A stretch of 64,000 bases of DNA, from contig JACQMS010000011.1 of the NCBI GenBank assembly GCA_016203445.1, positions 2,517 through 66,516 of the forward strand. The letters run 5' to 3'. The position numbers and the translations under genes were made by a program. The notes under the pieces are model-generated. The model was given only the letters and a program-made list of their open reading frames with translations. It was not told the DNA's origin and did no database searches. Every line of letters starts with the position of its first letter. The stretch's first letter is position 1. Shown here piece by piece: positions 15,301-50,902 of the stretch. The DNA is from Candidatus Woesearchaeota archaeon (GTDB taxonomy: Archaea > Nanobdellota > Nanobdellia > Woesearchaeales > ARS49).

Positions 15301-17295
15301 GTGGGATTAGATTTTCGTTCGGGAAATTTGTTTAACAAATTCTCATTAGAAGAAACATTAGGCAAAGGAAGCATCGGACAAGTTTGGAAAGCAAAAGACA
15401 CCATAATTGGAAGAACAGCAGCACTAAAAATATTAGATCCTGAAGCAGAAAAAAATGCCAAGAAGAAAGGAAAAAATCTTAAAATTAGAGAAATATTCAT
15501 CCAAGAAGCAAAAAATCTTGGAAGATTACAGCCAAAAACAATAGAAGACCACAAACCAGCAGAAAGAATAGCGCAAGTCTACGAAGCAAACATAGACCAA
15601 AAAACAGGCTTAATGTATATAGCTCAAGAATTCGTTGAAGGAGTAACACTAGCAACGACTCTGAGAGAGAAAAGAAAAATTGATGCCAGAAAAATAATAG
15701 AGCAAATACTTGAAGGGTTACAGTACGCCCACGAAAGAGGAGTTATTCACAGAGATTTAAGCATTCACAACGTGATGATAAGCCAATCTGGAGCGAGAAT
15801 AATAGATTTTGGCATAGGATCACTTGGAATACCAACAAGCATATTATACCTTGCACCAGAATTAATACAAAACCCCGAAAATTCAAGCCCACAAACAGAC
15901 TTGTGGTCTACAGGGATAATAGCTTACAGAATTACGCACGGAAGATTTCCTTTCGGATTAAAAAACAGAAATATTGAGGAACACGACAATGCAAGAACAA
16001 CACTTGACGACGTTGTGAAAACAAAAGAAGAATATGAAGATGTAAGAAGACAAATATTAGAAGAAGAATTAGAAAATGTTCCAATGATAAAAATTGCGAG
16101 AACCCCCCTTGAAAGAACTATAAGAAAACTATTAGAGAAAAAACCTGAGTACAGGCCAAAAAATGCGTACAAAGCATTAAGAATGGTGGCAAGGCCTGAA
16201 GAGATAACAACGCTTGCAAGAGCAATACCAATTTATGGAGGAATAGTTTCAGGAATATTATACTTCATGTTATGTCTTGGAGAACCAAAAAATTATTTGT
16301 TAGCAATTGAAGCAGGCAACAAAAAAGAAATAATGGCTTATTCAAATCCTGAAAGTATGGGAGCCCTGCATTCAGAAGAAACACCCAAATCGCTACCAAG
16401 AATAGTAAGCAAAGATTTGAGGGCGGCAGACTATGACAAAAAGTATGCACTGATAGAAGAGCCAGAAATAATGATACAATCAACAGAAGGAAGATATGTA
16501 TTATATGGAAACGTAAATACATTATACTTACTAGACACCAAAACTGGAGAAAGCAACAATATAAATATCCAACCAGCAAACGAAGAAAGCATACTCTTCG
16601 AAAGAATACTGCGCATAGTTGATAATCAAGGGAGATATTTTGCAATGAATCCAAAAAGTCCAAACATTGCAATTCCCAAAAATATTAAACAAGTAATAAA
16701 TGGAACAATAAGCCCAGAAGAAATAAGACAAATTGCAACTGATGGAAGAAATATTTTTTATGCTACAAGAACTCACATTTACGACGAGGAAAGTGACACG
16801 CCATTAGTTGAGGGCGTTGATATAACTAACCTAAATTACGTACAGTACAAATCAGAGGCAACACTATTCTATATCGATGAAGGAACACAATGCGGAATAC
16901 CATTAAGAGCATACTATGGTTACAGAGAACAAAATAATGAAATGCCAACACTTGACAAAAAAGCATTAACAGCTGCGCCAATGGAACGAGTAGGAATGAA
17001 AATATTAGAAAGAGTAGGAGAAGAATGGTTCTTGATTACGGTTAACGAGCAAAAACATTTGTGGAACTCAAGAATAGACAAAACATACGCGCCGCCATTC
17101 CTAGAAAGCGCAACAACAATTACAAGCACCGGCGAAAAGTTTTTTTACACTGCAAAAGTTAGGGACGAAACAGGCGACGGAATAATTGACGAAAAAGATT
17201 CAAGAACATTCATATGCGATGCTGGCACAGGAAAGCTTTTAGAAGGGCCGAGAGCAATAAGAATAGCTATAGTAAAAACAGATTATGAAGAGTAG
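15301..17295 (+). CDS. Ser/Thr protein kinase with a large C-terminal non-kinase domain
   Basis: GKGSIGQVWKA glycine loop, HRDLSIHNVMI catalytic loop, DFGIG, APE. About 350 further residues follow without a recognised motif. Confidence 0.8.
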   Translation: MGLDFRSGNLFNKFSLEETLGKGSIGQVWKAKDTIIGRTAALKILDPEAEKNAKKKGKNLKIREIFIQEAKNLGRLQPKTIEDHKPAERIAQVYEANIDQKTGLMYIAQEFVEGVTLATTLREKRKIDARKIIEQILEGLQYAHERGVIHRDLSIHNVMISQSGARIIDFGIGSLGIPTSILYLAPELIQNPENSSPQTDLWSTGIIAYRITHGRFPFGLKNRNIEEHDNARTTLDDVVKTKEEYEDVRRQILEEELENVPMIKIARTPLERTIRKLLEKKPEYRPKNAYKALRMVARPEEITTLARAIPIYGGIVSGILYFMLCLGEPKNYLLAIEAGNKKEIMAYSNPESMGALHSEETPKSLPRIVSKDLRAADYDKKYALIEEPEIMIQSTEGRYVLYGNVNTLYLLDTKTGESNNINIQPANEESILFERILRIVDNQGRYFAMNPKSPNIAIPKNIKQVINGTISPEEIRQIATDGRNIFYATRTHIYDEESDTPLVEGVDITNLNYVQYKSEATLFYIDEGTQCGIPLRAYYGYREQNNEMPTLDKKALTAAPMERVGMKILERVGEEWFLITVNEQKHLWNSRIDKTYAPPFLESATTITSTGEKFFYTAKVRDETGDGIIDEKDSRTFICDAGTGKLLEGPRAIRIAIVKTDYEE

Positions 17296-17297
17296 TG

Positions 17298-17323
17298 GTT
17301 TAACTGCAAAGTTTAACTGCAAA
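17298..17323. repeat. Perfect tandem duplication of a 13-mer (gtttaactgcaaa x2) at a convergent gene junction
   Basis: Read directly. Spans the 17-nt gap between the kinase stop (17295) and the pilin-like gene stop (17313). Confidence 0.5.
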
Positions 17324-17792
17324 TTTTCAAGAGTATTTCAACATCAGTGCCAATAATATTCCTCTTCTGAGAACCGCTACGATACTCACCAACACAATTT
17401 TCAAAACCATTATTTATTCTCTGAACTGCACTAGTACCAAAATCCAAACTATACTGCAAAGCCCAATCTTTCAAAGTTGCACCCAAAATTTTCTCGCTAT
17501 CAAGCTTAACAGCATCACATACTTGAACTGTCGGAGAACTGCACTTAGTCGTAGGAGTAGTTACACAATCTCTTAATGCCTGATCAATAGTCCTGCCAAT
17601 ACAAGTAAAACTGCTAGTTTTCAGCAATGCGTCAAGAGTACTCTGAGGCAAGTCCGCCTCGCGAAACTCTTCAGACAAACCAACACTATTCTTACCAAAA
17701 ATGAAAAGCATAGTAAACATTATTCCCATAACTACTAGAACCATGACTATAACCAAGCCAATAATTTCCGTTTGCGCCTTATTTTTAGTCAT
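17313..17792 (-). CDS. Type IV pilin-like protein (class III signal peptide)
   Basis: N-terminus MTKNKA|QTEIIGLVIVMVLVVMGIMF: a KA-Q motif followed by a ~20-aa hydrophobic helix. Confidence 0.6.
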   Translation of the reverse strand: MTKNKAQTEIIGLVIVMVLVVMGIMFTMLFIFGKNSVGLSEEFREADLPQSTLDALLKTSSFTCIGRTIDQALRDCVTTPTTKCSSPTVQVCDAVKLDSEKILGATLKDWALQYSLDFGTSAVQRINNGFENCVGEYRSGSQKRNIIGTDVEILLKICS

Positions 17793-18315
17793 AAGCCCTT
17801 ACCTTTAACAACGCGAAAGAATAATGCCTAGAAGTTGCAGGATCGCACAAATTATCACAAACAACTATAGGCAAAGTGAACAATTGATAACCAGAATCAG
17901 TTTTAGGATTAGAATAAATTTTAATGTCGCTCCACTTGGAATTTTGATGATTATACACTGATATGTTGACATCAGAATAACCGAAAACCGTTTTAAACCT
18001 ATCATTTAATTGCGACGACAATGCGCTAATAGCTCTAGCTTTCTCCTCATCAACACACTTCTGGGTGATATCGCCGGCATAAGAACAATCAAGCTCTGGA
18101 AGAAATTGCGCTTGAACAGCAATCTGCACAGCCCTCATCTGCTCAAACTGGGCAAAATCCCTCTTCATAGAAGATTCCTGAACGTAATAATAAAAATTCA
18201 TGCCGAAAGCAAGCAAGAAGAAAAAAACAATCATTACAGCAATACTCTCAAAAGTCTTAATCTGTCCACGCCTGCTAATACCGCTAATATATTGATGGGC
18301 AACCATTGCGCACAA
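17785..18315 (-). CDS. Type IV pilin-like protein (class III signal peptide)
   Basis: …SRRG|QIKTFESIAVMIVFFFLLAF. Overlaps its neighbours by 8 and 32 nt. Confidence 0.55.
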   Translation of the reverse strand: MCAMVAHQYISGISRRGQIKTFESIAVMIVFFFLLAFGMNFYYYVQESSMKRDFAQFEQMRAVQIAVQAQFLPELDCSYAGDITQKCVDEEKARAISALSSQLNDRFKTVFGYSDVNISVYNHQNSKWSDIKIYSNPKTDSGYQLFTLPIVVCDNLCDPATSRHYSFALLKVRAYD

Positions 18316-19327
18316 GATCCTCGTTTTTATTTTTTAATAATTGGGAATTAGTTTTGATTATTGAAACTGGCGATGAGCTTGATGTTGTTGAAGTTAACAA
18401 GCCGTCACGAAGAGTTTTAGCATTAGTATATATATTTTGCAACGGGGCAGTTATTGTTCCATACAAAGCAGTACAAGAACTTCTGGTCGGAGGAGTAGTA
18501 GTTAGTGCAGAACTTATTTTTGTTATTCTCCCTATCTGAATGCTCGCAACGGCCTCCAACCTCTCAAAAGACTTCATAGAGTTACACTCAAACATATCAA
18601 CATCAGAACTGAACAATGCTCCAAGAATTTGAGGAGTTTCTAGATAATACCTTTTCTCACTACCAATATTAATTTCATTGCTTGAAGGATTAACTACTAC
18701 AAATTTTGTTATGCCTTTAAACTGCATAGGAGTATTTAGATTAGTTCCTGATGTAGGAGTATTAAGAAGAGCAATAGTAACACTCTCATAATTATTATTC
18801 TGAATGGATGAAACATCTGAAAAAGCATCAACATACTGCACATTAAACCTTTCAGGAATCAATTTCTTAATTTCGTTAAATAAGTTCTGATTATTATTTT
18901 TCACGATAATATATTTATGCCTGTCATTAGAAGCAAACAAAAAGTTAGTAATCCTGTTAGGCACATCCCAAGAAAGACTCCACAAATGCAGTTGAGTCCC
19001 AGTAATTTTTTTAGGAGCAAAAATAATTCTCTGATTAAAATCACGAGACATACTACCAGAAGTGTAAGAACACTCGCAAGAAATACCCCTCTTCCTGCAC
19101 TGAAAAGACAAATCAATATTAGGAACTTCCTTAGTGCTAACAGTATTCTTCTCAGTACCAGCAACAGTCACCAAAGTTTCTATCTGGCGAACAATAGTGC
19201 TATCAGTTTTTGCCAATGACAAAGACTGCTGTTTCTGAATCATTGAGAAGAAAAACAAAAGAATAACTGCTCCAGCAATAATTATGAAAATCCAATTGAA
19301 TTGATCGCTCAAAGCCTTATTATTCAT
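18284..19327 (-). CDS. Type IV pilin-like protein, 347 aa (class III signal peptide)
   Basis: MNNKA|LSDQFNWIFIIIAGAVILLFFF. Confidence 0.6.
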   Translation of the reverse strand: MNNKALSDQFNWIFIIIAGAVILLFFFSMIQKQQSLSLAKTDSTIVRQIETLVTVAGTEKNTVSTKEVPNIDLSFQCRKRGISCECSYTSGSMSRDFNQRIIFAPKKITGTQLHLWSLSWDVPNRITNFLFASNDRHKYIIVKNNNQNLFNEIKKLIPERFNVQYVDAFSDVSSIQNNNYESVTIALLNTPTSGTNLNTPMQFKGITKFVVVNPSSNEINIGSEKRYYLETPQILGALFSSDVDMFECNSMKSFERLEAVASIQIGRITKISSALTTTPPTRSSCTALYGTITAPLQNIYTNAKTLRDGLLTSTTSSSSPVSIIKTNSQLLKNKNEDLVRNGCPSIY

Positions 19328-19360
19328 AACACATCATCACCACAAAATTGTTGTTGAAAA

Positions 19361-19894
19361 TTATTTGCAATCTTTAATGCTTAAAGGAACAACACCCCAT
19401 TTTGAAACGCAGACAGTCTTGCCAGAACCCTCAGCCCTAAAATCAATAACGCCATCATTAGAATCGAGGCACAAAATACCATTATGAACAGTCAAATTCT
19501 TAAGCTTAATACTAACATCCGAGGGAGGAATAGTAAAAACGTTCTGATCAACGGTTTTAGACTTTTGTATAACAATATCAGGAGTTCCTGTCGGAGCTCG
19601 ATAATTTAATGGATTCACTTTAAATCTCTCAGTAAAACAAACTTTAGAAAACCCTCCAGGCAAAGAAACCTCAACATGCTTAACAGTACCCCTTTGATAA
19701 GCGATATTTTCAACATTACTCCTCAAATCATTAGCAAAATTGACAAGCTTTGCATCATCAGTGCGCTCAGTGAAAGACTTGATAGCTCTGGAACCCCACA
19801 AAATAATAATTATTAAAACGAAAGCAGCAACTATGATGACGAACATCTCGCTGACAGTCTGAGACTTTTTTGATGCAACAACGAAAGAACTCAT
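19361..19894 (-). CDS. Type IV pilin-like protein (class III signal peptide, Glu at +5)
   Basis: …ASKKS|QTVSEMFVIIVAAFVLIIIILW. 4-nt overlap with the giant gene upstream. Confidence 0.55.
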   Translation of the reverse strand: MSSFVVASKKSQTVSEMFVIIVAAFVLIIIILWGSRAIKSFTERTDDAKLVNFANDLRSNVENIAYQRGTVKHVEVSLPGGFSKVCFTERFKVNPLNYRAPTGTPDIVIQKSKTVDQNVFTIPPSDVSIKLKNLTVHNGILCLDSNDGVIDFRAEGSGKTVCVSKWGVVPLSIKDCK

Positions 19895-22800
19895 TTTTTT
19901 GCAACCTCCCTCAAAGCAGAAAGACCAGAACTTTTAGACTTTTTCTTAGACTGACCAAGCTCAACATAATCATCCTTAACAAATTTTGATTCATCGTTCT
20001 TTGAAAAAGTTTTAAGAGACCTCAACTTTTCAAGAGCACTCAACTGTTTAGACTCCTGCTTCTGAGACTCTAACTTTTTAACAATCTGCTGATTTTGAGT
20101 ATTTACTTGAGAAATTTTTGCTTGCTGAACTTTCTGAGGCGCCACTTGCCGTTGAACAAACGAAGAACGCTGAGAAGTTAAAGGACTGCCGGAAGTAGTT
20201 GGACGATTAACTGGCTGTTGTTTACCCAAAGGCATTCTAATCTTAGGAATAAATGAAGGTCTAGAAAATAATTGCGGAGATTTCTTAACATGCTTGCCTG
20301 AAAAGTTGGTATACAAATACCAACCACCAGCCACAAGAACTAAAAGAATGATAATCCACAAAAGTATAGATTTACCCTTACCACCAACGATGCTACTACC
20401 ACTAACGCCAGAATCACCATCATCACCGTCAACACTCCAATCATCATCATCAAAACCGCCAGTATCATCAATAGGTCTATCAGTAGTAGAACAAGAACCA
20501 CTAGTACACTCCAAACCATCAGAACAATCCTCTTTTTGGAAGCAAGACTGGAACAAATCGCACTTTTTAGAACACATAGTACCACAATCAACATCAGGCT
20601 CTCCAGGATCACGCTCATTATTCTCGCAAGGTCCGGGAATCTCACAAGTACCAGTATTCAAGCAAACAAGATTAGTATTACAATCAGTAGTGCTAATACA
20701 CCCGCCACCCAAATCGCATTGATTACTGCAAGAACCGCCACAATCAACACCAGACTCCAAACCATCCTTCTTACCATTAGTACAACTAGCACCAGAACAA
20801 GTATTATTAGTGCAGGACAAACCACCAGAACAATCCCTCTGCTGAATACAAGACTGGTTTATAGAACACGCACCACACTGCCCGCCGCAATCAACACCAG
20901 ACTCTCCAACATCCTGCAAACCATTCCTGCACAATTGAGGAATTGAAGCAATATCAATCTTTATAGGAGAAGAAGTAAGGGGAGAGCTTTGAAGACCAGT
21001 CTTATCCTGAAGCCACGCGGTTACTTTGTAACTATCACCATTAGTTAGATTAATGTTTTTACCATTATGATCAGTGTTGAAAACCCACTCCTTATTAAAT
21101 TCCTGAGAGTGAACACACCTGCCGCTCGCAAACTTTTCAGGAGAACAATCAACGACTATGTTGGAAGAATCATCTTCCAATTTGTAAAACATCCTAGAAA
21201 TACCAGAACCATTATCAAAACCAGAAACCCTAACAATCAATCTAGACTTATCAAAATAAGTGCCTGTTTTGTTAGGGGAAGAAGAAATATTAACACTGTT
21301 GATTAATGGAGAAGTTGTATCTATAGTAAACTTTCTAGAATTTCTAGCAATCTGGGAAAAACCGGGCTTTCTGCACTCAACAATAACAGTATGATTGCCA
21401 TCAACAATATCACTAAATTCGTCCCAGTGATCATAAGAAGTTTCTCCGGGGCCCAAAGAGTCATCAGACGAAAACATAACTAGAGGAGAGTTGTCCAAAG
21501 AATGATAACAAAGAGCGCCCTTATTCGTAATAACGCTAACTCTGGGACTTGCTATATTAATAAAAGAATTCTGAACGGGCGCAACAAAAGAAAAATTCAG
21601 ATCAATATTAGTTTCAACCTTGAAAGCAATATTTTTCAAATCACTCTTAGAAGTTTGACTTGGATTAGTGCACTGAATATTAACATTATAACTCTGATGA
21701 TCCCTATCAACAATGTATTCCTCAGTATGAGAAATACGAGGCTCCAAAAGCCAGCCAAAAAATTCTCCGTCCATAGATTCATAAACACTAACTGAAGAAT
21801 CATACTTGCAAAAGGTTTCGTCAGTAGTTTGAACATTTAATGACGTGTTATAAACCGGAACCCTGTTAATAATTGTAGGTTCGGTTATAGGGCTAGGATG
21901 CGCGAACACTTTAACAATTTTTGGAGGACCATCAAAAAATCTAAGCTTGAAACGCTGAGTTGTTACTATATTCTTAGCAATATTCCTGCAAGCAATAGCA
22001 ATATCCTTAGTCTCACCCTTAAACAATTTTTTGCCGGTAATCTTTTGAAAGTCCAAAATAGTTTCAAACAAAGAATCACTCTTCCTAGTCAATCCGGGAA
22101 TATTATCATAACCTGCAAGAGTTGCATCCTCATCAACACTATCAGTATAATAAACACACGATTCTACAGGCTGCAAAGTTTGGACTTGCAATGTAAAAAT
22201 TTGTTTATCTGTAACACAATAAGGAGGAGCTATAACAGCCATAATAGGCCCGACTTTCTCAATAGTAAAATTTAATTTGAAAAAAGCAGAATTATTTGCT
22301 TTGTCTGTTATTGAAACATTCAACCACCTAATACCATCAATAGAACTACCATCATCAACAACTGAAGACCAAGAAGTATTCGCGGGGTCGTCAGTTGACA
22401 AGAACATTGGATTTGTGGAGCTTGAAATATTAACGACATCAAAAGCAATACCACACTTAGCAACAAGACCCGTATGGCCCTTCCAGGACAAAGAAACATT
22501 TTTTAAATATACAAACTCGTCAAAAATTAGTGAAGCACTACCACCATCAGAGTAAATAGAATCACTGTTAGTAAGATTTGGAGGAGTGGTGTCGAGGATG
22601 AATTTTAGTTCGGCATCTTTTTGTATAGGTTTGCCATACAAAGAATCCTGACCTTTGAAAGATAATATGTATTCACCATCAGGAAGGTTGGCATCAAGAA
22701 GGTTAAAAGAGTGAGTATACCTGCTCTCACCACTAACAGAATATTTATACAACTCTTTAAGCGAAGGATCTGAAGCGTTTAATATATTCGCCTCGAATAG

Positions 22801-24870
22801 TACTATTGAAGGAACAATCTTATTGGGAAGCTCCAAAAATCGTAGTGATAAAACAGCATTTTTCTTGTTAGTATACCACAAACCATACTCCGGCAAAACG
22901 TCAACATTTTCAACACGAATCGCTGGACTAACTACAAAATTTTTAAGTGAAGCATTCTCACAACCTTTACAACCAACAACAAACGTTTCCTGAACTACAC
23001 CTTTGTTTTTAGCCCAGTCAGTAGAAAAAAACTTTAATGTGTTAACTCCGGTTTCCAACTGCAAAGTAGAGTTATCCTCGAATATAATTTTGTCATCATA
23101 TATGTATACATAATTACAACGAGTGTTCTTATAATTGCAAGAATTATCAACAGGATTTAAAACACAAATACTGGTAGTAGATTCTTTAAAGGTTTCAGGA
23201 CACCCGGGGTATAAAGGATCATCAACATCATAAGAATCAATTTCTACGGGCTCCTCATCAAACAATTTTAATTTTTTATCATACAATTCTATAAGCAGTT
23301 TATCCCTAGAAGGAGACCTTGTTATAGAAACATTCGGAGAAAAATAATCTTTCTCGCAATCAGAATTTTTTTGAACATTTTCAGTACCATCATCATTAAA
23401 AAAGTTGCAATCACGAGCACCATCACCATCAGCATCCTTGAAGCAAGATTTTGATTTTACAGAACCAGAATCATACCTGCAAACAGGAATGCCGCAAGCA
23501 TTATCAGAACGCCCAACAATATTATTAGAAATATCAAGTGAAGGAACTGAAGGGTTCGCGCCGCCTATACATTTCTGCTTTATATCAGTAGGACTGCTGC
23601 CAAGCTGAGTAAAATTAGTGCAGCTCCAATCATTACAAGAAGCTGTACCACCATCAGTATACAAACATTGAACTCCAGACAAGCTTAAAGCATTGCTTAA
23701 AGGCTCCGTACAAACATCAAAAATATCGTTGAACGCCTCCTCATTAGGAGCATCAAGAGCAGTTCTTTTAGTACCACAAAAGAGACAATTATCAGCATCT
23801 TTCTCAACACAAACACCGATACCTAAAAAGCCCAATCCTGCAACATCATTCCAAGAACACCTAGGAGGCCTGCCACCAACCTGGCATGAATCAGTAGAAC
23901 ACGCATCGCGAGTTTTATAATCATAACACTTCATAGTTGAAGAACAAGAATAACACTTGTTAAGCAAAGTTTCAGACTTATCATAAAAACAAGATTTAGG
24001 AACTCCCTGAGAATTTTTCAAACAAGAATTTTTAGTAGTGAAAAGACCAAAAAAGTCTTCCTGTTCACACTCACCATCAATAGAACAAACAGGACTTCTA
24101 GAATCATCAATAACGCACAATTGCTGAGGAGTACATGAAGGATTTATAGGAATATTTTTAAGATTATTATCATCACCAGGGCATTGAAAAGCTTTTCTAA
24201 CACGATCAGAAAAACTCGCAGGCGTTTCGCTCTGTAAAGATGACTGTGTATAAAATGATGGATTAATACAAAAAGTTTCAGTGCCTCTGCCCAAACACTC
24301 AATATTTCCTAGAGAAACAACCTTTTTCTCAGTAGTCGATGAAACCTCGTTGTTTTGAGTGCCAGCATAAATTGCGGTAACCCTAAACTCATACTTAGTA
24401 TCGCCAACTTTTTGAAAAGTCAGACCAGTATCAGTATAAGCAGTAACACCTCTAGGAACAGTAACAGTTTTTGAAGGCTGAGATTCAGGAACTCCATTAC
24501 TATCAATTTTGAAACGTTTCAACTCGAATTTTAACGGCTGACAAGTAGAAGTCCAAGACAACTGAATATTTCTAGAACCCTTGACAACCCTGCCATCAAG
24601 ATTTTTTACAGGATCCCTATTACTCTGACAATTAACAATATTAGTAGTAGGAGTTGTGGCAACGACTCTACACAATTCCTCAGGAGTTTTAAACGCATCA
24701 GAAGCACTATTTATTTCCTGATACTTCCCAGCAGGGCAAACTTCTCCAGCAGAATAAGTGTGAGGAGTTGGAGCGCAACAAACAGCGAGAGTTTCGGCAG
24801 AAACATTTTCAGTGTTAACAAATATTGCGATAAACAATATTAGAGCAATGATTATTATTCTTTTACTCAT
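19891..24870 (-). CDS. Giant (1659 aa) Cys-rich, Ser/Thr/Asn-rich surface protein: Sec signal peptide, C-terminal TM anchor, ~150-aa K/Q-rich cytoplasmic tail
   Basis: N-terminus MSKRIIIIALILFIAIFVNTENVSA|E. Three tandem Cys-rich modules (…GESGVDCGGQCGAC…, …LESGVDCGGSCSNQC…, …GEPDVDCGTMCSKKC…). Acidic DDDDWSVDGDDGD linker, then the ILLWIIILLVLVAGGWYLY TM helix. Confidence 0.8.
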   Translation of the reverse strand: MSKRIIIIALILFIAIFVNTENVSAETLAVCCAPTPHTYSAGEVCPAGKYQEINSASDAFKTPEELCRVVATTPTTNIVNCQSNRDPVKNLDGRVVKGSRNIQLSWTSTCQPLKFELKRFKIDSNGVPESQPSKTVTVPRGVTAYTDTGLTFQKVGDTKYEFRVTAIYAGTQNNEVSSTTEKKVVSLGNIECLGRGTETFCINPSFYTQSSLQSETPASFSDRVRKAFQCPGDDNNLKNIPINPSCTPQQLCVIDDSRSPVCSIDGECEQEDFFGLFTTKNSCLKNSQGVPKSCFYDKSETLLNKCYSCSSTMKCYDYKTRDACSTDSCQVGGRPPRCSWNDVAGLGFLGIGVCVEKDADNCLFCGTKRTALDAPNEEAFNDIFDVCTEPLSNALSLSGVQCLYTDGGTASCNDWSCTNFTQLGSSPTDIKQKCIGGANPSVPSLDISNNIVGRSDNACGIPVCRYDSGSVKSKSCFKDADGDGARDCNFFNDDGTENVQKNSDCEKDYFSPNVSITRSPSRDKLLIELYDKKLKLFDEEPVEIDSYDVDDPLYPGCPETFKESTTSICVLNPVDNSCNYKNTRCNYVYIYDDKIIFEDNSTLQLETGVNTLKFFSTDWAKNKGVVQETFVVGCKGCENASLKNFVVSPAIRVENVDVLPEYGLWYTNKKNAVLSLRFLELPNKIVPSIVLFEANILNASDPSLKELYKYSVSGESRYTHSFNLLDANLPDGEYILSFKGQDSLYGKPIQKDAELKFILDTTPPNLTNSDSIYSDGGSASLIFDEFVYLKNVSLSWKGHTGLVAKCGIAFDVVNISSSTNPMFLSTDDPANTSWSSVVDDGSSIDGIRWLNVSITDKANNSAFFKLNFTIEKVGPIMAVIAPPYCVTDKQIFTLQVQTLQPVESCVYYTDSVDEDATLAGYDNIPGLTRKSDSLFETILDFQKITGKKLFKGETKDIAIACRNIAKNIVTTQRFKLRFFDGPPKIVKVFAHPSPITEPTIINRVPVYNTSLNVQTTDETFCKYDSSVSVYESMDGEFFGWLLEPRISHTEEYIVDRDHQSYNVNIQCTNPSQTSKSDLKNIAFKVETNIDLNFSFVAPVQNSFINIASPRVSVITNKGALCYHSLDNSPLVMFSSDDSLGPGETSYDHWDEFSDIVDGNHTVIVECRKPGFSQIARNSRKFTIDTTSPLINSVNISSSPNKTGTYFDKSRLIVRVSGFDNGSGISRMFYKLEDDSSNIVVDCSPEKFASGRCVHSQEFNKEWVFNTDHNGKNINLTNGDSYKVTAWLQDKTGLQSSPLTSSPIKIDIASIPQLCRNGLQDVGESGVDCGGQCGACSINQSCIQQRDCSGGLSCTNNTCSGASCTNGKKDGLESGVDCGGSCSNQCDLGGGCISTTDCNTNLVCLNTGTCEIPGPCENNERDPGEPDVDCGTMCSKKCDLFQSCFQKEDCSDGLECTSGSCSTTDRPIDDTGGFDDDDWSVDGDDGDSGVSGSSIVGGKGKSILLWIIILLVLVAGGWYLYTNFSGKHVKKSPQLFSRPSFIPKIRMPLGKQQPVNRPTTSGSPLTSQRSSFVQRQVAPQKVQQAKISQVNTQNQQIVKKLESQKQESKQLSALEKLRSLKTFSKNDESKFVKDDYVELGQSKKKSKSSGLSALREVAKK

Positions 24871-26120
24871 TGAACAGTCACCGTCCTCTCCTGATAATCA
24901 TACAAATCACCATCAGATGCAACAACGGAAAATTTGGTAGTGCTAGTAATCAATGTCAAAGTGTTCTGAATCGCAGGAGTTGAAGGAGTGTTAGAAACAA
25001 TACCAAAATTAACAACATCCTCATCAGGGTCGTGATAATACAAAGTTATAGGATTTAAAGGGGTTGTAACAGTTTGAGTAGATACCCCGCTACCAACATA
25101 ATACTTTCCGGTAGCGGTAATCTGCGCATTTTGAACAAATATTTTATAACCATTCTCAAATCTTTTGCCATCAAAAAAAGACAAGTCCGTCTTGACTAAA
25201 GCAGGATGCCTGTTCTGCCTAGCAAACCTAAACTTTACGATATCACCACGATAAGGCCTCTCAGAATCCCTAATCTCAACAATATCATCGCCACGATTTG
25301 CTGATACGGGATTTCTTATAACGCTTGAAGAAAACTTTTGAGTAATACCACCAATAACAACAGAAGTTTCCTTGCCATCAGGACTAAAAGTAATAATTTC
25401 CGCGTCATCAGAAGCTATCTGAAACGCGGCCTGCAACAAACCAGCAAGTCTTACAGGAACAGACAAAGTAAAAGAATCAGATTTTTTGACGTCGCCCAAT
25501 TTTGATGCTTCAACAATAATATCAACAACCAACTGAACATCCGAAGGATTCAAAAATATGCTAAACGATGGAACAGTTGCTGTAACAGATATACCTTCTG
25601 AAGAAAACTTGTCAAAATTTAAACAATTAGTAGACTTTCCAGACACATAATTTTTTAAATCGTTAATAACAGAATCATTAGAAGGTAGAACAACCTCACC
25701 AATCTTATATTTTTTTGTCAAATCCACAAGATTTGAAGTTCCAGGAGTGTTAGGAAAATCAATCCAAGGAAATTCAGGAGGAGATTTGTAAAAAACTTTA
25801 AAACCTCCAGCGGTGTAATCATCAGACAATCTCCTAATACCATAACCAATATTTCTAGACTCAAAAGACAAATAATTCTGAGGATTAATACTGCCTCCCT
25901 GAGCCAAAGATAATTCTACAGCACTCTCCAACAAACCCTGAAAGCAAGCACTAACGTAAGACTCCACAGAGTCCAAACCCTGAACATTTTTATTTTCAAC
26001 ACTCTTAATAGTTCCAGTAATGTAAATGCCAACAGAAATAGTTGCTACAAGAACAAGACCGATAAGTATGAAAACAGAAATTTGCGCCTTGACAAAATTG
26101 CGATAGGGGAAAAAAATCAT
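24867..26120 (-). CDS. Type IV pilin-like protein, 417 aa (class III signal peptide)
   Basis: MIFFPYRNFVKA|QISVFILIGLVLVATISVGIYI. 4-nt overlap with the downstream giant gene. Confidence 0.6.
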   Translation of the reverse strand: MIFFPYRNFVKAQISVFILIGLVLVATISVGIYITGTIKSVENKNVQGLDSVESYVSACFQGLLESAVELSLAQGGSINPQNYLSFESRNIGYGIRRLSDDYTAGGFKVFYKSPPEFPWIDFPNTPGTSNLVDLTKKYKIGEVVLPSNDSVINDLKNYVSGKSTNCLNFDKFSSEGISVTATVPSFSIFLNPSDVQLVVDIIVEASKLGDVKKSDSFTLSVPVRLAGLLQAAFQIASDDAEIITFSPDGKETSVVIGGITQKFSSSVIRNPVSANRGDDIVEIRDSERPYRGDIVKFRFARQNRHPALVKTDLSFFDGKRFENGYKIFVQNAQITATGKYYVGSGVSTQTVTTPLNPITLYYHDPDEDVVNFGIVSNTPSTPAIQNTLTLITSTTKFSVVASDGDLYDYQERTVTVQ

Positions 26121-26123
26121 AAA

Positions 26124-29100
26124 CTAAGAACCTCCAATAAGTCTAAGCTTTGTAGTCAAATCCTTCCAAGAAGTGTCAGCAGTAGAAAATTTGTTGACTT
26201 CAGAAGCTACAACATAATAATTACTGCCAGAATTATAAACGCCAAGAACAGACTTATATCTATCAAGATTTTCCTTAATTTGAGGATGCGCATTTTCGTA
26301 AACTGCAAAAAAAGAACTTCGAGGAGTTCCACCAGAAGGCACTCCTATATACACATCTTCAAAAAGTATTGCGTAAACAATACTAGCTCCAGAAGTTGTA
26401 GAACTCTTAGCCAAGAAAACTTTAGAATAATCAGCCCTAGAATAAAGAGGTTTTGATGAAGAATCCTTAGTTGTTGAAGGAACTGACAAACCATTAATAT
26501 CCTGATAAACAGTTGTGGAATAAAGAGCGTTCTCTGCGGGGCTACCAACGGCAGAATTAAAAATGTTGGTGTTTGACTGACTCAAAAACAAATCATTAAT
26601 GCTCTTTGATGAAGAAGGTTTAGTAATCGAACTATCAACAGAAAATATTGCAAGCTGTTTAACAGGATTATAATACAAAGTTTTAGTACCAACATTAGAG
26701 CATTTCATAAATTCATCACGAGATTGAGATATGATGGACAAGCACTCATTATTATTAGTACTGCCCAAAGATTTCAAAAAAGTGGCACTATTATCAGTAG
26801 TGCTCTTATTAATGGGAACGTTGAGAACCGCACCGATAATAACGGGAAGGTTAGGACGCTTCAAAACGCACATAGTAGATATACAATTATCGGGTCTAGA
26901 AGAATCACCATCAACAGGCTTACAAGAATTATCAACACCCATAGATCCAATGGCCGCGCTAACACCACTAACAGACTTAACATCCTTAACGCTACCACAA
27001 AACAATTCATAATCATTAGAACTTTTCACAAAATCATACAAAGCTGACGATAAATACGTAGCCCTAGAAGTCCACGCACCATTATCGCAAAACGCATCCC
27101 TTCTAGGAGGATTCGAAGAGGTAGAACTATGAAAACTTATGAAAGTTCCAGAATTCGCGCACCAAAACTTATTCCAAGAATCAGAACTCTCATACCAAGA
27201 AGTTCTATTACCAACAACAGAACCACCAGAAGGAGTCTTAGCAAAACAATGCTCTGCCTTAGGACAAAAACCAGTACTGCCAAAATCAGGAGAAGTTTTA
27301 GGAGTTATCTCAGTCCAAACACCATCACCATTGGCAGCAGTCTCGCAACGATACTTTTCTTTAGTAAGACTCAATGAAGCATCATTTTTCTGGTCGGAAA
27401 CACAAGAGTTACCATTCCAACAATAACCCTTAACACAACAACCAGTAGCAGAATAATAATTTTTATTAACGCTCTCAAAATAACTAAGATTAAACAATTC
27501 TTCACCAATAACAGAATCTTTAGAAAATTTTCCAGTAGACGGAGAATTACTCAATTCTTTAACAGAATTATCACTCAACAATTTAACCATTACGGGAACC
27601 AAGCCAACAATTTGAGGATTAGAACCATCAAAACCACGAACAGGATTAGAAACATCTAAAGGGTCTTGAGGAATATTGAAAATGTTCCATTTGCCATTAC
27701 CACTGCCACCAGGCTGGCACAAGGCATACTGCTTCAAAGGATTAGAAGACACAGAAGTATGCAAAGAAGCATTAAGCATGGAGCACGCAGGATAACCAGC
27801 AACCAAATTCTCAGAAGTTCGCATATTCGCGTTACCAGCTGTTAATGATAGAATGCCAGAATCCTTAATATCACAACCAACAAATTGTCCATTAATGTTT
27901 GCAACAGCGCCGCCCAAAAGCGAAGGTCTAGTATTATCATCAATAGAAATTTTCCCCCACAATTGAGAAGTTCCAGAAGCAACAAAAGTAGAATTCCAAC
28001 AACCACCGGAATCTTCATCAACTTTTCCTTGATAAAAGGCATTAACGTCGGGCTTGTTAGAAGACAAAGGCAATCTATCATTATAAAACTCTGGCATTTG
28101 ACCCCACTCACCGCAACATTTAGAACCAGTCCAGACAAACTTTCTATCATTACCACTATCAACAGTACCAATATCCAAATCTCTAGAAGTCAAAAATTGT
28201 GAAGACTTCTTAATCTCTGCGCACGCAAACTTGTTATTAAGAGACAAAGAGTCAAGCTCTGAAGACCACCTGCCAAAAGGTGAACAGTACAACTCCTCAG
28301 AATTTCTTGAAGAGTAGAAATCAATGTAGTAATCAAAAGAATATTTGTAATTATCATCAATAGAAGTACTACTAAGAATTCCTCCAATAGAAAATTTTTG
28401 TCCGGGAACCGCGAACTGGAAAAGTTGCAGAGGCCCCAGCTTTGAGGCAAAAGATTTCTCAACAACAACACCATTCAACAAGCACTCGGCATTAAGCGCT
28501 CCCCAAGAAAAACCTACAGTAAAAGAATTCTCAATATTCCAAGGCTGAGAAACTTCTACGGGAGAACTTTTAGTTCCATCATTCAAAGAGCACTTAATAA
28601 CACCGCCACCAGTAGCCGAAGGCTTCTCAAACCATATTTTTGCTGAAGACGCGCCATTGTTGTAAGATAAAAATGTTAAAGTTCCAACAAAATCAGACCA
28701 ATCAGTGGCAGTCAAGGAACCGCCACGACCACCACCAATTTTTTCCAAACCGTTAAGAACAACCCTCAAAGAAATCAAACCATCACCCTGCAAGAAAGGA
28801 GCATTAAAACCATCCTTGACAACAAGATCACAATTAGGACTACAAGAACTATGGAAAGTACCAACATTAGAAAATGTAAGCGAAGGAATCTCGTAAAGCT
28901 TTTCAGAAGAAGACTTACCAACAAGAGAACCATCAATATTTTTAGTCAAAGATTTAGGTGATAGTGACGCGAAACCAGAACTGCCACCACCATCAACCAT
29001 AGCACACTCCCTAATCCATAAACCTGTCAAAGAATTATCATTAACGCTTTTAGAAGTACAAACAAAATCGTGAGACTTGCCAGAATTAAAAACGGTAACT

Positions 29101-32100
29101 TTTTTGAAAGTTTCAGGAATTTTCAAAATTTTATCACTGCCACTAAGAGCTGAAGTAACAGCGTCCTGCTTTGTTTGAACAAACAATTTATCGAAAGAAA
29201 TGGGGTCAGAAATAAAAATGTCAGAACCAATATTAGAACTAGACAAACCCGTAAGAACATCGCCAGAAGTAACAGTAACTCTCAAACTGGAAGGAACTGG
29301 AGGAGTTACAGACTTCTCAAATGAAGATACCGCTCCGGGAAATTCCAACAAATTATCAACAGAACGAGTCACGGCGCCTTGAGATGCACCATCAACAAAA
29401 AATTCTGATTTTGTGGTTAGAGTTACAGGAATTTCAGGAATGCAGACAACAGATGAAGACGAAGCATAATCTGAATACCCAAAAACAGTCTCGTCTCCAG
29501 AAGTGCCAGTACTTGAGGTGTGATGATTCTCAACAAAAAACTTTTGAGTGTTAGAACTCTTTTCTGAAGGAATATCAATGGAAACTATTTGCCCATCATA
29601 AAGGCCCAAATATCCTGCATCAGAAATTTTAAGAAAATCTGAATAGTCATAATTACTGTAATCCCATCCTTGAATAGGGACGGAAAGATGTTCCACGCGC
29701 GCAATTACTGCACCCGCATCGTTCTTTATGACAGTAAAAGCTATAGGAACTTTCTCACTAAATGTATAATCATCGCCTTGACTATCTTTTTGGGTTACAG
29801 ATATCGTTGGCCAATCAAGCTTAACATTAAGAGCCGAACACCTGACTGGAGAGGCAACAGTCGCTTCAGAACCAGAGACGGTCATACCAATACCATTACC
29901 ATTAACGGTTGCAATGATTGGAGGAATAATACCACCAGAATAATCAAAAGATGAACCCTTGCCCTTAAACTCCAAACTAGTAATCGTTGAAGGACTAACA
30001 GGAAGTGAAGACGTTAAAGAATAAGTAATCTTGAGCTCAACATTTTTATCAATATGTTTTGGAGAAACTCCATCAATAGCCCTAGCAATATCACTAATAT
30101 CCGCGAGAACCAAATTATTTAGTTCAGGAGCTGTAATCTTTGCAGTGAAAGGAGTAATTCTTGAAAGCTCTGCGCGCTTAATATTCTCCGCTTCTGAAGG
30201 TGAAGGAACATAAAGATAAACGGGCGAGGACACTCCACCGGAAAGTTGTGAAGAAGTAATAATATTACCAGGAATATAATCAACACTTCCATAGGCATTT
30301 TTAGTTATAGGATTTGTTGACAATAAAACATTTTTTGATAAAGGAATTAAAACATAACTCTCAGCACCAGGAATAGTAGTCGAAGAAATCACTAACTGAT
30401 TACTATCAACAACGCCGGGTTTCAGATCTGCGGTTTTGATAACTCTCTTCACGGGAACGGCTCTGGCGTTAAAACACTCAATACCTGTCCAGGAAGCACC
30501 AGAACTAAGAGTTAAAGAAACAGAATTTACAAAATTGCCTGCAGGAATACTTGATGAATCAACAACATATTCAGCAGTACCATCACCATCATCATCAGGA
30601 CGCATAACCGCGGGTAAATTTTTTGAACCCGAAGAATCACCAACAAAACTAACGGCGGCGCTATAAAACAGAGGGGAAGAATGCGAACCAACAGCGTCAA
30701 TGTTCAAAATCAGAGAAGTGCAAGATTTAGGAGTTGGAAAAGTATAAGTTTTAGTTTCGGTAGAGGTTCCAGAAAAAGTAATAGAAGGATTAACAGAACC
30801 AGCAGTAACGCTTAAAGACTTAACGCCGAAAACAGCGATATCAAATTTTGATAACAACTCCTTGCTCACATCAGGAACGCCGCACATCAACCTATCAGAA
30901 CCATTAAGAAGTATTTGGTTATCGAAAAAGCAAGAACTCTTATAAACAGTACCGTTAACGGACTCAACCCACTCCCACTTTTTAGAACCATCGAGCTGAA
31001 CAACGTTATCACAAAACAACCTTTTATTATTCACAACCTCATTAGTATTACAATCAAGAGAGCCATCATCACCACAACAACCACTACCAAAAGTTACTAA
31101 ATCGTTAAAAACAAAACCAGTCTTAGTAATTGAAGCTCCAGGAGCAGTTTGAGCGTTCTCACAAGAATTCTTCCAAAAATCCCTATCATCCAAAAAATCG
31201 CAAACCCTATTCAAATCACTATCAAGACAAGAATAAACATAAACCTTGTCATCAAGCAAAGCATTACCACTAGAATCAACAAGCTTACCACCAGCCTTAA
31301 GATCAGAACCCCTATCAGTAATAATACTAGAAGGCTCAAAAGTATAAAACCAATCAACAGAAGGATAAGAAACAGGAGTTTTAGAAGAAAACCAGACCAT
31401 AACCTTAGGGTTAGAAGAGTTAAGCCATTGAATATTATGATCTTTAGAGTTTATAGCACTAATGGCTCCGGGAGAACCGGTACTGCCAGAGTTTTGACAG
31501 ATAGTTCCACCAGTGTAATAATCAGTTCTTGGAATCATTAAGTCCCTAACTGTTCCTAGAAATAGTGCATTATCATTGATAGATATCTTTGCCTTTTTAG
31601 GATTTAATGAGCTTGGAGAAATGGTTTTTCTTAATCGAAATGATACATCATTCAAGCTCATAGATGTCGCATCACCTAGTTCTGACATGAACCGGGCATT
31701 TGTAGCACTGATACTACTCAAAGGCAAGTCTAATGAATGCCACCCATAATATGAACCTCTACCCCAATCTTCTGTGAATACTTCGCCCCCATTATTGGGA
31801 AAATAAATGTGGATATTGGCATATCTTGATTTTTCTTTACACGGATCATCAGTATATGCTTTTACTCTCAAATTGATAACTTCTATGGGCGCATCAGAAA
31901 AAGTTACATCTAAAGATCCATACCTATTATCGCCCGTGCAGGCATTTCTTCCAACAGTAAAAAATCCTGACTTTCCCCAACAACTTCCCCCAACACTATA
32001 CTCTGATATATAATCTGCGTATATACTAAAAGATTCTTCAGCGGAACCCGCCAAGGAGAAAAAACATAAAAGTATGATTATACTAAATATCAAGACTGCT

Positions 32101-32120
32101 CTCTTAATGAACTTGCCCAT
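26124..32120 (-). CDS. Giant (1998 aa) secreted Cys-, Ser-, Gly-, Asn-rich protein; no obvious TM anchor
   Basis: Sec signal MGKFIKRAVLIFSIIILLCFFSLAGSA|EE. Uninterrupted 6-kb ORF, beta-rich composition, many N-x-S/T sequons. Confidence 0.8.
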   Translation of the reverse strand: MGKFIKRAVLIFSIIILLCFFSLAGSAEESFSIYADYISEYSVGGSCWGKSGFFTVGRNACTGDNRYGSLDVTFSDAPIEVINLRVKAYTDDPCKEKSRYANIHIYFPNNGGEVFTEDWGRGSYYGWHSLDLPLSSISATNARFMSELGDATSMSLNDVSFRLRKTISPSSLNPKKAKISINDNALFLGTVRDLMIPRTDYYTGGTICQNSGSTGSPGAISAINSKDHNIQWLNSSNPKVMVWFSSKTPVSYPSVDWFYTFEPSSIITDRGSDLKAGGKLVDSSGNALLDDKVYVYSCLDSDLNRVCDFLDDRDFWKNSCENAQTAPGASITKTGFVFNDLVTFGSGCCGDDGSLDCNTNEVVNNKRLFCDNVVQLDGSKKWEWVESVNGTVYKSSCFFDNQILLNGSDRLMCGVPDVSKELLSKFDIAVFGVKSLSVTAGSVNPSITFSGTSTETKTYTFPTPKSCTSLILNIDAVGSHSSPLFYSAAVSFVGDSSGSKNLPAVMRPDDDGDGTAEYVVDSSSIPAGNFVNSVSLTLSSGASWTGIECFNARAVPVKRVIKTADLKPGVVDSNQLVISSTTIPGAESYVLIPLSKNVLLSTNPITKNAYGSVDYIPGNIITSSQLSGGVSSPVYLYVPSPSEAENIKRAELSRITPFTAKITAPELNNLVLADISDIARAIDGVSPKHIDKNVELKITYSLTSSLPVSPSTITSLEFKGKGSSFDYSGGIIPPIIATVNGNGIGMTVSGSEATVASPVRCSALNVKLDWPTISVTQKDSQGDDYTFSEKVPIAFTVIKNDAGAVIARVEHLSVPIQGWDYSNYDYSDFLKISDAGYLGLYDGQIVSIDIPSEKSSNTQKFFVENHHTSSTGTSGDETVFGYSDYASSSSVVCIPEIPVTLTTKSEFFVDGASQGAVTRSVDNLLEFPGAVSSFEKSVTPPVPSSLRVTVTSGDVLTGLSSSNIGSDIFISDPISFDKLFVQTKQDAVTSALSGSDKILKIPETFKKVTVFNSGKSHDFVCTSKSVNDNSLTGLWIRECAMVDGGGSSGFASLSPKSLTKNIDGSLVGKSSSEKLYEIPSLTFSNVGTFHSSCSPNCDLVVKDGFNAPFLQGDGLISLRVVLNGLEKIGGGRGGSLTATDWSDFVGTLTFLSYNNGASSAKIWFEKPSATGGGVIKCSLNDGTKSSPVEVSQPWNIENSFTVGFSWGALNAECLLNGVVVEKSFASKLGPLQLFQFAVPGQKFSIGGILSSTSIDDNYKYSFDYYIDFYSSRNSEELYCSPFGRWSSELDSLSLNNKFACAEIKKSSQFLTSRDLDIGTVDSGNDRKFVWTGSKCCGEWGQMPEFYNDRLPLSSNKPDVNAFYQGKVDEDSGGCWNSTFVASGTSQLWGKISIDDNTRPSLLGGAVANINGQFVGCDIKDSGILSLTAGNANMRTSENLVAGYPACSMLNASLHTSVSSNPLKQYALCQPGGSGNGKWNIFNIPQDPLDVSNPVRGFDGSNPQIVGLVPVMVKLLSDNSVKELSNSPSTGKFSKDSVIGEELFNLSYFESVNKNYYSATGCCVKGYCWNGNSCVSDQKNDASLSLTKEKYRCETAANGDGVWTEITPKTSPDFGSTGFCPKAEHCFAKTPSGGSVVGNRTSWYESSDSWNKFWCANSGTFISFHSSTSSNPPRRDAFCDNGAWTSRATYLSSALYDFVKSSNDYELFCGSVKDVKSVSGVSAAIGSMGVDNSCKPVDGDSSRPDNCISTMCVLKRPNLPVIIGAVLNVPINKSTTDNSATFLKSLGSTNNNECLSIISQSRDEFMKCSNVGTKTLYYNPVKQLAIFSVDSSITKPSSSKSINDLFLSQSNTNIFNSAVGSPAENALYSTTVYQDINGLSVPSTTKDSSSKPLYSRADYSKVFLAKSSTTSGASIVYAILFEDVYIGVPSGGTPRSSFFAVYENAHPQIKENLDRYKSVLGVYNSGSNYYVVASEVNKFSTADTSWKDLTTKLRLIGGS

Positions 32121-32238
32121 ATCACAACCTCTTTTTTAATAATATTCATTCATAAGTGATTAGTTTATTTTTAAATGTTTGCCTAGAAAGGTTTAAAAAC
32201 TTGATTATGTATAGTCCTAGGAAAAAAGAGACAAAAAA

Positions 32239-48028: not shown

Positions 48029-48103
48029 ATGTTGACAGTTCGACAAAGCTTTAAAAAAGGCAGGTTCTTAAACAGGCAATAAAGCAAAAAAAGAGGAGTA
48101 CAA

Positions 48104-50898: not shown

Positions 50899-50902
50899 TA
50901 AA

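Follow-up and report, generated by a model that had tools for sequence, protein, structure and literature searches.

Five pilin-like proteins encoded with a conserved cysteine-rich giant in Woesearchaeota: a probable tip or adhesin module of type IV filaments

The DNA considered here is a 64,000-nucleotide stretch of a Candidatus Woesearchaeota genome (GenBank assembly GCA_016203445.1, contig JACQMS010000011.1, positions 2,517 to 66,516 of the forward strand), referred to below as the window and numbered from its first letter. Seven minus-strand genes at 17313-32120 encode five proteins with pilin-like N-termini, interleaved with two very large surface proteins of 1998 and 1659 amino acids (aa). 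The question raised by this locus is whether it encodes part of a type IV filament and, if so, which part. With a probability of roughly 0.55, the locus supplies the pilin-and-adhesin half of a type IV filament system, resembling the type IV pilus (T4P) and related members of the type IV filament (TFF) group, and conserved across Woesearchaeota; it is probably a tip or adhesin module not previously described in this lineage. This reading rests on a conserved N-terminal motif, a long N-terminal helix and synteny, while complex formation, docking and adhesion are argued by analogy. Numbered from the upstream end and given as in the table of open reading frames (ORFs), the genes are:

26124..32120, minus strand: gene 1, 1998 aa, with a Sec signal and without a membrane anchor
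24867..26120, minus strand: gene 2, 417 aa, pilin-like; a class III-type N-terminus precedes a large globular part
19891..24870, minus strand: gene 3, 1659 aa, the conserved giant, with a Sec signal and a C-terminal transmembrane (TM) anchor
19361..19894, minus strand: gene 4, 177 aa, pilin-like, with Glu at +5
18284..19327, minus strand: gene 5, 347 aa, pilin-like, with a QFNW motif, the largest within a four-gene block
17785..18315, minus strand: gene 6, 176 aa, pilin-like, listed from a TTG start, with an internal position that may be the true start
17313..17792, minus strand: gene 7, 159 aa, pilin-like, with six conserved cysteines
32121..32238, minus strand: intergenic region upstream of gene 1, divergent from the plus-strand gene at 32239, as read from the sequence

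All seven ORFs were reproduced at the coordinates given by the first-pass annotation of the window, which had described a packed, operon-like arrangement of co-oriented genes. The spacing it gave was reproduced as well: two neighbouring pairs are separated by 3 and 33 nt and the other four overlap by 4, 4, 32 and 8 nt, an arrangement that is operon-like as judged from the sequence. The intergenic region contains an A/T-rich TTTAAAAATA box about 50 nt upstream of the gene 1 ATG and a GAGGT 8 nt upstream of it, and likely represents the operon promoter and ribosome-binding region; the promoter scan used a sigma-70 model, which is uninformative for an archaeal host. The organism had been judged DPANN-like, in agreement with its assignment to Candidatus Woesearchaeota, and the 417-aa and 1998-aa proteins are HY483_01270 and HY483_01275 at NCBI, encoded on a contig of 76.7 kb. 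The GC content of the cluster (0.36-0.39) matches that of the remainder of the window, and no tandem DNA repeats were found within the cluster genes. A 13-bp direct repeat, GTTTAACTGCAAA, present in 2.3 copies at 17298-17327, runs from the convergent spacer between the 159-aa gene and a kinase gene into the 3' end of the 159-aa gene.

The five small proteins had been read as carrying the class III-type signal of archaeal prepilins, that is, [KR][GAS] followed by Gln or Leu and then about 20 hydrophobic residues. This pattern was found in all five, and the single protein said to have Glu at +5 is indeed the 177-aa protein. Comparative counts, here and below, rest on the 80 best loci among 284 species-level genomes that encode a relative (one genome per GTDB species was scanned). 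In each orthologue the junction was located ahead of the first hydrophobic stretch, start calls that were too short having been corrected first. The N-termini in the window (a slash marks the junction) and the conservation of the [KR]x0-1[GAS] junction in each family are:

417-aa family: FVKA/QISVFILIGL (FVKA/QISVFILIGLVLV); junction in 34/35 orthologues; Gln at +1 in 94%
177-aa family: SKKS/QTVSEMFVII (SKKS/QTVSEMFVIIVAAFVLIII), with Glu at +5; junction in 68/68 orthologues; Gln at +1 in 92%; the motif was recovered from upstream start codons in orthologues whose starts had been called too short
347-aa family: KA/LSDQFNW (NNKA/LSDQFNWIFIIIAGAVILLFFF; MNNKA/LSDQFNWIFIII); junction in 78/78 orthologues; +1 variable; QFNW near-invariant
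176-aa family: RRG/QIKTFES (SRRG/QIKTFESIAVMIVFFFLL; SRRG/QIKTFESIAVMIV); junction in 74/75 orthologues; Gln at +1 in 87% and Glu at +6 in 87%
159-aa family: MTKNKA/QTEIIGLVIV (TKNKA/QTEIIGLVIVMVLVV); junction in 68/68 orthologues; Gln at +1, Glu at +3 and Gly at +6 each in 100%

The junction is thus kept in 97-100% of the orthologues of the five families, at 22-35% identity, while the two giants, used as an internal control, have Gln at +1 in 0%. Since the motif persists at this level of divergence in 80 genomes and is absent from the giants, it is more than a chance resemblance. Gln at +1 is reported to be essential for the processing of Methanococcus pilins by the peptidase EppA (PMC4390842). 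When the five families and two neighbouring ones found in relatives (fam1, about 100 aa, and fam0, about 300 aa) were compared by hhalign, mutual resemblance was seen only in the first 30-45 residues; the probability reached up to 94% in pairs among these families and was gone once 42 residues had been trimmed. Resemblance confined to the N-terminus is the usual pattern among type IV pilins.

An AlphaFold2 (AF2) model of the 347-aa protein, built from an 86-sequence alignment, reached a predicted local distance difference test score (pLDDT) of 93.4 and a predicted template modelling score (pTM) of 0.89. It consists of a continuous 56-residue helix (residues 3-58), strands over residues 62-142 and then a C-terminal helical bundle, and the modelled combination of a long N-terminal helix with beta-strands is as in pilins. 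The class III reading is strengthened by the conservation of the cleavage-site motif in 80 genomes together with this 56-residue helix (pLDDT 93). What the five small proteins show, at the level of sequence, is a class III signature and not a demonstrated homology to known pilin families. Among 45 orthologues of the 159-aa protein the commonest sub-threshold NCBIfam matches were PilV (5) and GspG (4), which is only a hint in favour of the pilin reading. The 417-aa protein has a conserved C-terminal DPDED…ASDG…DYQ motif that appears cadherin- or Ig-like when read by eye; Pfam gave no match for six orthologues of this protein.

The cluster is far from being confined to one genome. A phmmer search with the 347-aa protein returned 1292 clusters (at 50% identity) at E ≤ 1e-3 and 942 at E ≤ 1e-10. 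The 80 best loci are nearly all titled Woesearchaeota, Nanoarchaeia or Nanoarchaeota. Several (designated L011, L014, L016, L017, L021 and L023 in our numbering of the relatives, and others) are titled 'uncultured Methanosarcinales archaeon' and one (L015) 'Candidatus Binatia bacterium'; these titles, all of TPA_asm metagenome-assembled genomes, are probably mislabelled, or the contigs misbinned. The block of genes encoding the 177-, 347-, 176- and 159-aa proteins, in this order, occurs in almost every one of the 80 loci long enough to hold it. It is preceded by the 417-aa gene and a giant of the 1659-aa family in most loci with a sufficiently long upstream flank, and in the remaining ones by a more divergent large gene (fam2). 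Median junctions in the relatives range from -34 to +1 nt. Three examples, in each of which every gene reciprocally matches its window counterpart at 22-35% identity, have the following gene lengths:

L005: 645+399 / 438 / 1692 / 166 / 360 / 160 / 155 aa
L008: 843 / 411 / 2660 / 162 / 342 / 160 / 161 aa
L009: 1441 / 412 / 1972 / 166 / 349 / 161 / 158 aa

None of the seven proteins has a Pfam or NCBIfam match beyond weak fn3 and Big_13 matches in the 1659-aa protein; domain databases are at present blind to all of them, and a search of one literature collection found no account of this cluster. The 417-aa protein had three matches in a word-indexed search of 5.8 billion proteins.

In the same search the 1998-aa protein matched only itself, and its start at NCBI differs, giving a protein of 1976 aa. 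Both observations would fit an artefact, that is, giant ORFs that are chimeric or fused by frameshifts, or else a recently acquired mobile or viral island. Such an origin is highly improbable. An identical 1998-aa ORF is present in an independent Logan assembly of run SRR12113383, which shows that the ORF is not an assembly artefact; the same junctions are retained in a relative at about 70% identity; and syntenic orthologues of all seven genes occur among the 80 genomes. The window-like base composition, the lack of tandem repeats and the housekeeping genes around the cluster likewise speak against an island, and the explanation was rejected on the strength of the independent assembly, the junctions of the relative and the synteny in 80 genomes.

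Of the two giants, the 1659-aa protein is the better conserved. As claimed by the first-pass annotation, it has a Sec-type signal, a C-terminal TM anchor and a cytoplasmic tail. The N-terminal signal (…NVSA/E) has a CC-x-x-P motif just behind it, the TM segment lies near residues 1495-1520, and the tail, rich in Lys, Gln and Ser, measures about 140 aa. An fn3-like beta domain (residues ~88-186) is followed by a Cys-rich region and then by beta-rich domains, and three disulfide modules of about 50 aa each (CxNGxxDxGExxxDCGGxC) occupy residues 1313-1470. Its only Pfam matches are the weak fn3 and Big_13 ones. The AF2 model (pLDDT 46) is unusable; the secondary structure is mostly beta. The word-indexed database contains seven homologues with about 26% identity over 70-89% of the length. 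Among 34 complete orthologues from the related loci the median length is 1694 aa, 24 of the 34 falling within 1671-1724 aa; the C-terminal TM segment is found in 34/34, followed by a tail of 119-278 aa, and the median Cys content is 4.8%. About 45 cysteines are invariant, and this, together with the near-constant length, suggests a structural component of fixed form and not a variable adhesin.

The 1998-aa protein is of a different kind. It had been described as Sec-dependent without an anchor, and the signal (…AGSA/EESF) was found with no further TM segment. The richness in Cys and Ser claimed for both giants was also borne out, the 1659-aa protein containing 4.5% Cys (74 residues) and 11% Ser and the 1998-aa protein 2.4% Cys (47 residues) and 15% Ser, against 0.9% and 6.6% in 24 other window proteins. 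The NCBI start of the gene at 26124-32120 lies 22 codons downstream of the ATG used here; the upstream ATG looks like the better start, because the downstream one would remove the predicted signal peptide. No Pfam or NCBIfam match was found for this protein. Mapping against at least 40 relatives showed that residues 1 to ~1240 are lineage-specific, whereas residues ~1240-1600 form a conserved region (fam4) and residues ~1560-1998 a conserved C-terminal domain (A). The two parts are present in relatives as a single fused protein of 860-1026 aa or as two separate genes (about 570 and about 375 aa); unfused relatives measure 368-433 aa. In L003 the last 365 aa are matched at 69% identity. As far as its sequence indicates, the 1998-aa protein is a candidate adhesin or cargo protein, variable but equipped with a conserved module for docking. 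It follows that the two giants described by the first-pass annotation do not both belong to the conserved plan: because the first 1240 residues of the 1998-aa protein are lineage-specific, its size is a local N-terminal expansion, and only the 1659-aa family is a conserved giant. The plan kept among the relatives, as their sequences read, is one giant and a secreted protein with a conserved C-terminus and a freely evolving N-terminus.

If the cluster encodes filament components, the machinery that assembles them has to be sought. It had been stated that no assembly machinery is encoded nearby. This held for the platform and the peptidase, as neither T2SSF/TadC nor an A24 peptidase is found among window ORFs of at least 150 aa. 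It did not hold fully for the ATPase, since a 608-aa protein encoded at 13421-15247 (plus strand), 2 kb beyond the operon end, has a weak match to T2SSE (E 5.8e-8) and also carries KH domains. On account of this domain composition the protein appears to be of the KH-domain ATPase type, a member of the ATPase superfamily that does not look like a FlaI- or PilB-type pilus ATPase; it is syntenic only in L011, an 80%-identical relative. The flanks of the 80 loci (±10 kb) were screened with a Walker-A pattern for the ATPase and a hydropathy-based count of TM segments for the platform, Pfam being run on candidates only. The polytopic proteins encountered were of the MFS, presenilin-type SPP, PMT, PAP2 and LPG-synthase types. 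Two T4P loci with CpaF and TadC have been reported to be conserved in Woesearchaeota and other cluster 2 DPANN archaea (PMC11291902), and for this reason it is reasonable, by analogy, that in this lineage the machinery would be encoded elsewhere.

Further pilin-like genes adjoin the cluster in many relatives. In 35 of the 80 loci the cluster is followed downstream by between one and four genes for proteins of about 100 aa that have KKA/QGLPITTIIIAALG-type N-termini and share four conserved cysteines. They are accompanied by two class III-like genes (about 300 aa) and by a gene for a 1080-1530-aa protein. Judged from their sequences, the ~100-aa proteins look like the best candidates for bulk filament subunits, that is, major pilins. 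Examples are:

L008, 20518-20799: ~100-aa pilin-like gene
L026, 16205-16510: ~100-aa pilin-like gene
L036, 14739-15816: ~100-aa pilin-like genes
L048, 12152-12750: ~100-aa pilin-like genes
(others were found in further loci)

Several results weigh against assigning the cluster to a filament. Curated pilin and archaellin profiles from Pfam and NCBIfam (e.g. Class_IIIsignal, Pilin_N and Arch_flagellin) gave no match, the orthologues yielding only isolated sub-threshold ones; profile searches against PDB sequences found nothing significant; and the globular part of the 347-aa model has no match among solved structures, solved pilins included. A strict FlaFind-type motif in our own coding, [KRDE][GA][ALIFQMVED][ILMVTAS]x3, was passed by the 417-aa protein only; each of the other four carries either Ser at -1 or, at +3, a polar residue. 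Neither an ATPase nor a TadC-like platform nor an A24 peptidase was detected around the 80 loci, in 287 kb of upstream and 444 kb of downstream sequence, and for the source genome the machinery search covered the 64-kb window. The major-pilin-like and other pilin-like neighbour genes of the relatives have no counterpart in the window. The membrane anchor and cytoplasmic tail of the 1659-aa protein fit a tip adhesin poorly.

Part of this evidence would suit a static envelope or S-layer-like scaffold, a core structure of Woesearchaeota built from five uncleaved bitopic anchors and the C-terminally anchored giant. Such a scaffold would need neither linked pilus machinery, which was not found beside any of the 80 loci, nor a pilin profile or pilin fold. 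It would agree with a giant of near-constant length with invariant cysteines and a cytoplasmic tail, and core vertical inheritance fits a single cluster per locus with an ordinary base composition and housekeeping neighbours (RNase P p30, for example, in the window and in L005 and L008). A plain anchor, however, needs no conserved [KR][GAS]/Q, nor the Glu at +3 and Gly at +6 of the 159-aa family; the same N-terminal module recurs in the adjoining ~100-aa pilin-like genes of relatives; and the N-terminal helix modelled for the 347-aa protein far exceeds a TM span. A static scaffold is considered unlikely.

Less likely again is a bindosome-like or pseudopilus structure, as known from Sulfolobus (Bas) and from the type II secretion system (T2SS), that would serve capture or secretion and not host attachment. 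A short, periplasm-like pseudopilus of the pilin-like proteins would in that case place or export the two large proteins, or else scavenge substrates. Four small pilin-like genes with a larger one recall GspH-I-J-K, and the 176-aa protein has a sub-threshold NCBIfam match to the bindosome protein BasB (E 0.042), but this match is confined to the N-terminal helix and is far below the threshold. Class III signals are widespread on archaeal proteins that do not form filaments (bioRxiv 10.64898/2026.04.22.720090). Against such a structure, no substrate-binding-protein domain or ABC transporter was seen in or beside the cluster, and no T2SS is known from archaea with a single membrane.

For the cluster as the pilin-and-adhesin half of a type IV filament, the following course of events is proposed by analogy. 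The five small proteins (417, 177, 347, 176 and 159 aa) would be made as preproteins with class III signals, and a PibD/EppA-type prepilin peptidase encoded elsewhere would cleave them after [GAS], leaving Gln at +1. The processed proteins would associate via their hydrophobic N-terminal helices. Since the five subunits are all different, occur as single copies and keep together in the same order, they would form one defined hetero-oligomer. This would be a tip or priming complex of minor pilins or else a short pseudopilus, resembling the bacterial FimU-PilVWX or GspHIJK complexes; a role as bulk filament is unlikely. The bulk subunits would be the ~100-aa pilin-like proteins that adjoin the cluster in many relatives and are encoded outside this window. 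The disulfide-rich, TM-anchored giant of about 1700 aa would act as a fixed envelope partner, the counterpart of the 'S-layer-like' component of archaeal T4P loci. The 1998-aa protein would dock by its conserved C-terminal modules, and its 1240 lineage-specific N-terminal residues would present a variable, probably adhesive surface. The CpaF/TadC loci would supply the motor for assembly in trans. Directly observed are the gene structure, the conserved motif, the synteny, the helix of the 347-aa model, the topology of the giants and the lack of linked machinery. From analogous systems we infer that the small proteins are cleaved and form a hetero-oligomer, that docking takes place, and that there is an adhesive role and a link to host contact; a role of the cluster in host attachment is plausible.

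How new such a locus is depends on what has been described elsewhere. The first-pass annotation regarded operons of this architecture as an uncharacterised system, which, for the type as such, is not upheld: the survey of Makarova, Koonin and Albers (2016, PMC4858521), in the part drawn on here, predicts archaeal T4P loci with two large Cys-rich proteins and at least five minor pilins, one large protein having a C-terminal TM segment and being termed 'S-layer-like' and the other being Sec-secreted and termed 'adhesin or minor pilin'. The closest loci in that part of the survey are clade 4G (Pyrobaculum/Thermoproteus) and clade 1 (Methanococci/Thermococci, with the Epd pilus). As described there, they share with the present cluster a pair of large proteins (the one with a TM segment near its C-terminus, the other secreted by Sec), at least five class III proteins, conserved cysteines in most components and Gln at +1, as in the EppA-processed Epd pilins. 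Unlike them, the present cluster is without ATPase, TadC and peptidase in all 80 genomes, no DUF2341 or PilY-like domain was detected in it, and its proteins have no Pfam or NCBIfam match beyond the weak ones noted above; Woesearchaeota are not among the lineages discussed in that part of the survey. Neither giant matched the PilY1/PilC beta-propeller or DUF2341 in Pfam at E ≤ 1. Large adhesin-like proteins have also been reported in several archaeal TFF systems or loci by a 2026 census (bioRxiv 10.64898/2026.04.22.720090). In its features the 1659-aa family resembles the arCOG05471 type of that survey (a large secreted protein with a single C-terminal TM segment and conserved cysteines, encoded among pilin genes).

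A similar plan is seen in bacteria. The operon fimU-pilVWXY1E of Pseudomonas aeruginosa is a minor-pilin/PilY1 operon organised in the same way. Like this operon and GspH-I-J-K, the present cluster contains four or five distinct pilin-like genes, one of them larger, and a large non-pilin protein. As in fimU-pilVWXY1E, a large protein is conserved in its C-terminal part and variable in its N-terminal one, and the ATPase and platform are encoded elsewhere. The differences are considerable, in that the present cluster is archaeal, has Gln at +1 and no conserved Glu at +5, shows no detectable homology in sequence or fold beyond the sub-threshold PilV/GspG matches of an N-terminal helix, and yielded no beta-propeller or PilC-type domain; furthermore, its second, membrane-anchored giant is without counterpart there. 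The match to the PilY1 operon is a resemblance of layout, not evidence of homology. For the bacterial minor-pilin operon the comparison refers to Nguyen et al. (2015), as cited in the part of the archaeal survey drawn on here (PMC4858521). The third point of comparison is given by the T4P loci of cluster 2 DPANN archaea, with CpaF, TadC, FlaF/PilA and coiled-coil proteins, which occur in the same lineages, Woesearchaeota included, and for which a role in host interaction has been proposed (Hamm et al. 2024, PMC11291902). The cluster differs from them in having no ATPase, platform or coiled-coil proteins and instead five pilin-like genes and Cys-rich giants, and by analogy those loci are likely the source of the missing machinery. 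Taken by its layout, the cluster is a machinery-detached variant of the theme of minor pilins plus a large surface protein, and the modelled fold of the 347-aa protein, without a solved neighbour, sets it apart from known systems.

The remaining genes of the window belong mostly to archaeal housekeeping functions, with topoisomerase VI A and B, RNase P p30, RIO kinase, PheRS alpha and beta, aRF1, PCNA, FEN1 and a tRNA-intron endonuclease. Directly downstream of the cluster, a Ser/Thr kinase (about 570-660 aa) is encoded in many relatives in either orientation, often followed by an AbrB/MazE+PhoU regulator and an AsnC-type regulator, and together these genes may form a regulatory module. The kinase genes cited are:

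15301-17295, plus strand: kinase in the window, convergent with the cluster
L005, 17685-19583: kinase
L059, 12107-13828: kinase
L017, 11947-13926: kinase

A second surface-protein cluster of four genes lies at 46904-51820 (plus strand). It encodes a 374-aa protein with a class III-like N-terminus (KRKNS/QATGATMLILVLIGIFLLF), a 626-aa polytopic protein ending in fn3 and, last, two proteins of 305 aa with lipobox-like LTASC and LSGC sequences, one of which has a CARDB match; no homologue of these proteins was found in the flanks of the 80 related loci. Other features observed in the window are:

11716-13329, minus strand: 537-aa protein that matches Lon_C (S16 protease) and has a signal at its N-terminus and a TM segment at its C-terminus; it may be an extracytoplasmic, membrane-anchored Lon-type protease
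34790-35891, minus strand: HEPN protein and nucleotidyltransferase, likely a toxin-antitoxin pair
53752-55102, plus strand: AbiEii-family nucleotidyltransferase toxin and its upstream partner, likely a toxin-antitoxin pair

The AT skew of the plus strand is positive in 31 of the 32 2-kb bins (0.06 to 0.47; one bin at -0.02) regardless of the coding strand, which suggests a strand-wide compositional bias.

By what means DPANN archaea hold on to host cells is still an open question, and few uncultured archaea are as widespread as Woesearchaeota. One tentative picture, held with clearly less confidence than the assignment to a filament itself, is that of a vertically inherited organelle found throughout Woesearchaeota, in which a short stalk of five pilin-like subunits from new families, a disulfide-locked membrane partner of about 1700 aa whose cytoplasmic tail connects it with the cell interior, and a fast-evolving secreted head might constitute a host-contact apparatus driven by a shared CpaF/TadC motor encoded elsewhere. 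Because the cluster is consistently separate from the pilus motor, surveys seeded with the ATPase or platform, such as the MacSyFinder-based census, would miss it. What appeared as an odd operon is now a defined target with relatives in at least 284 species-level genomes, for which variability is predicted to reside in the N-terminus of the secreted protein and not in the conserved giant.

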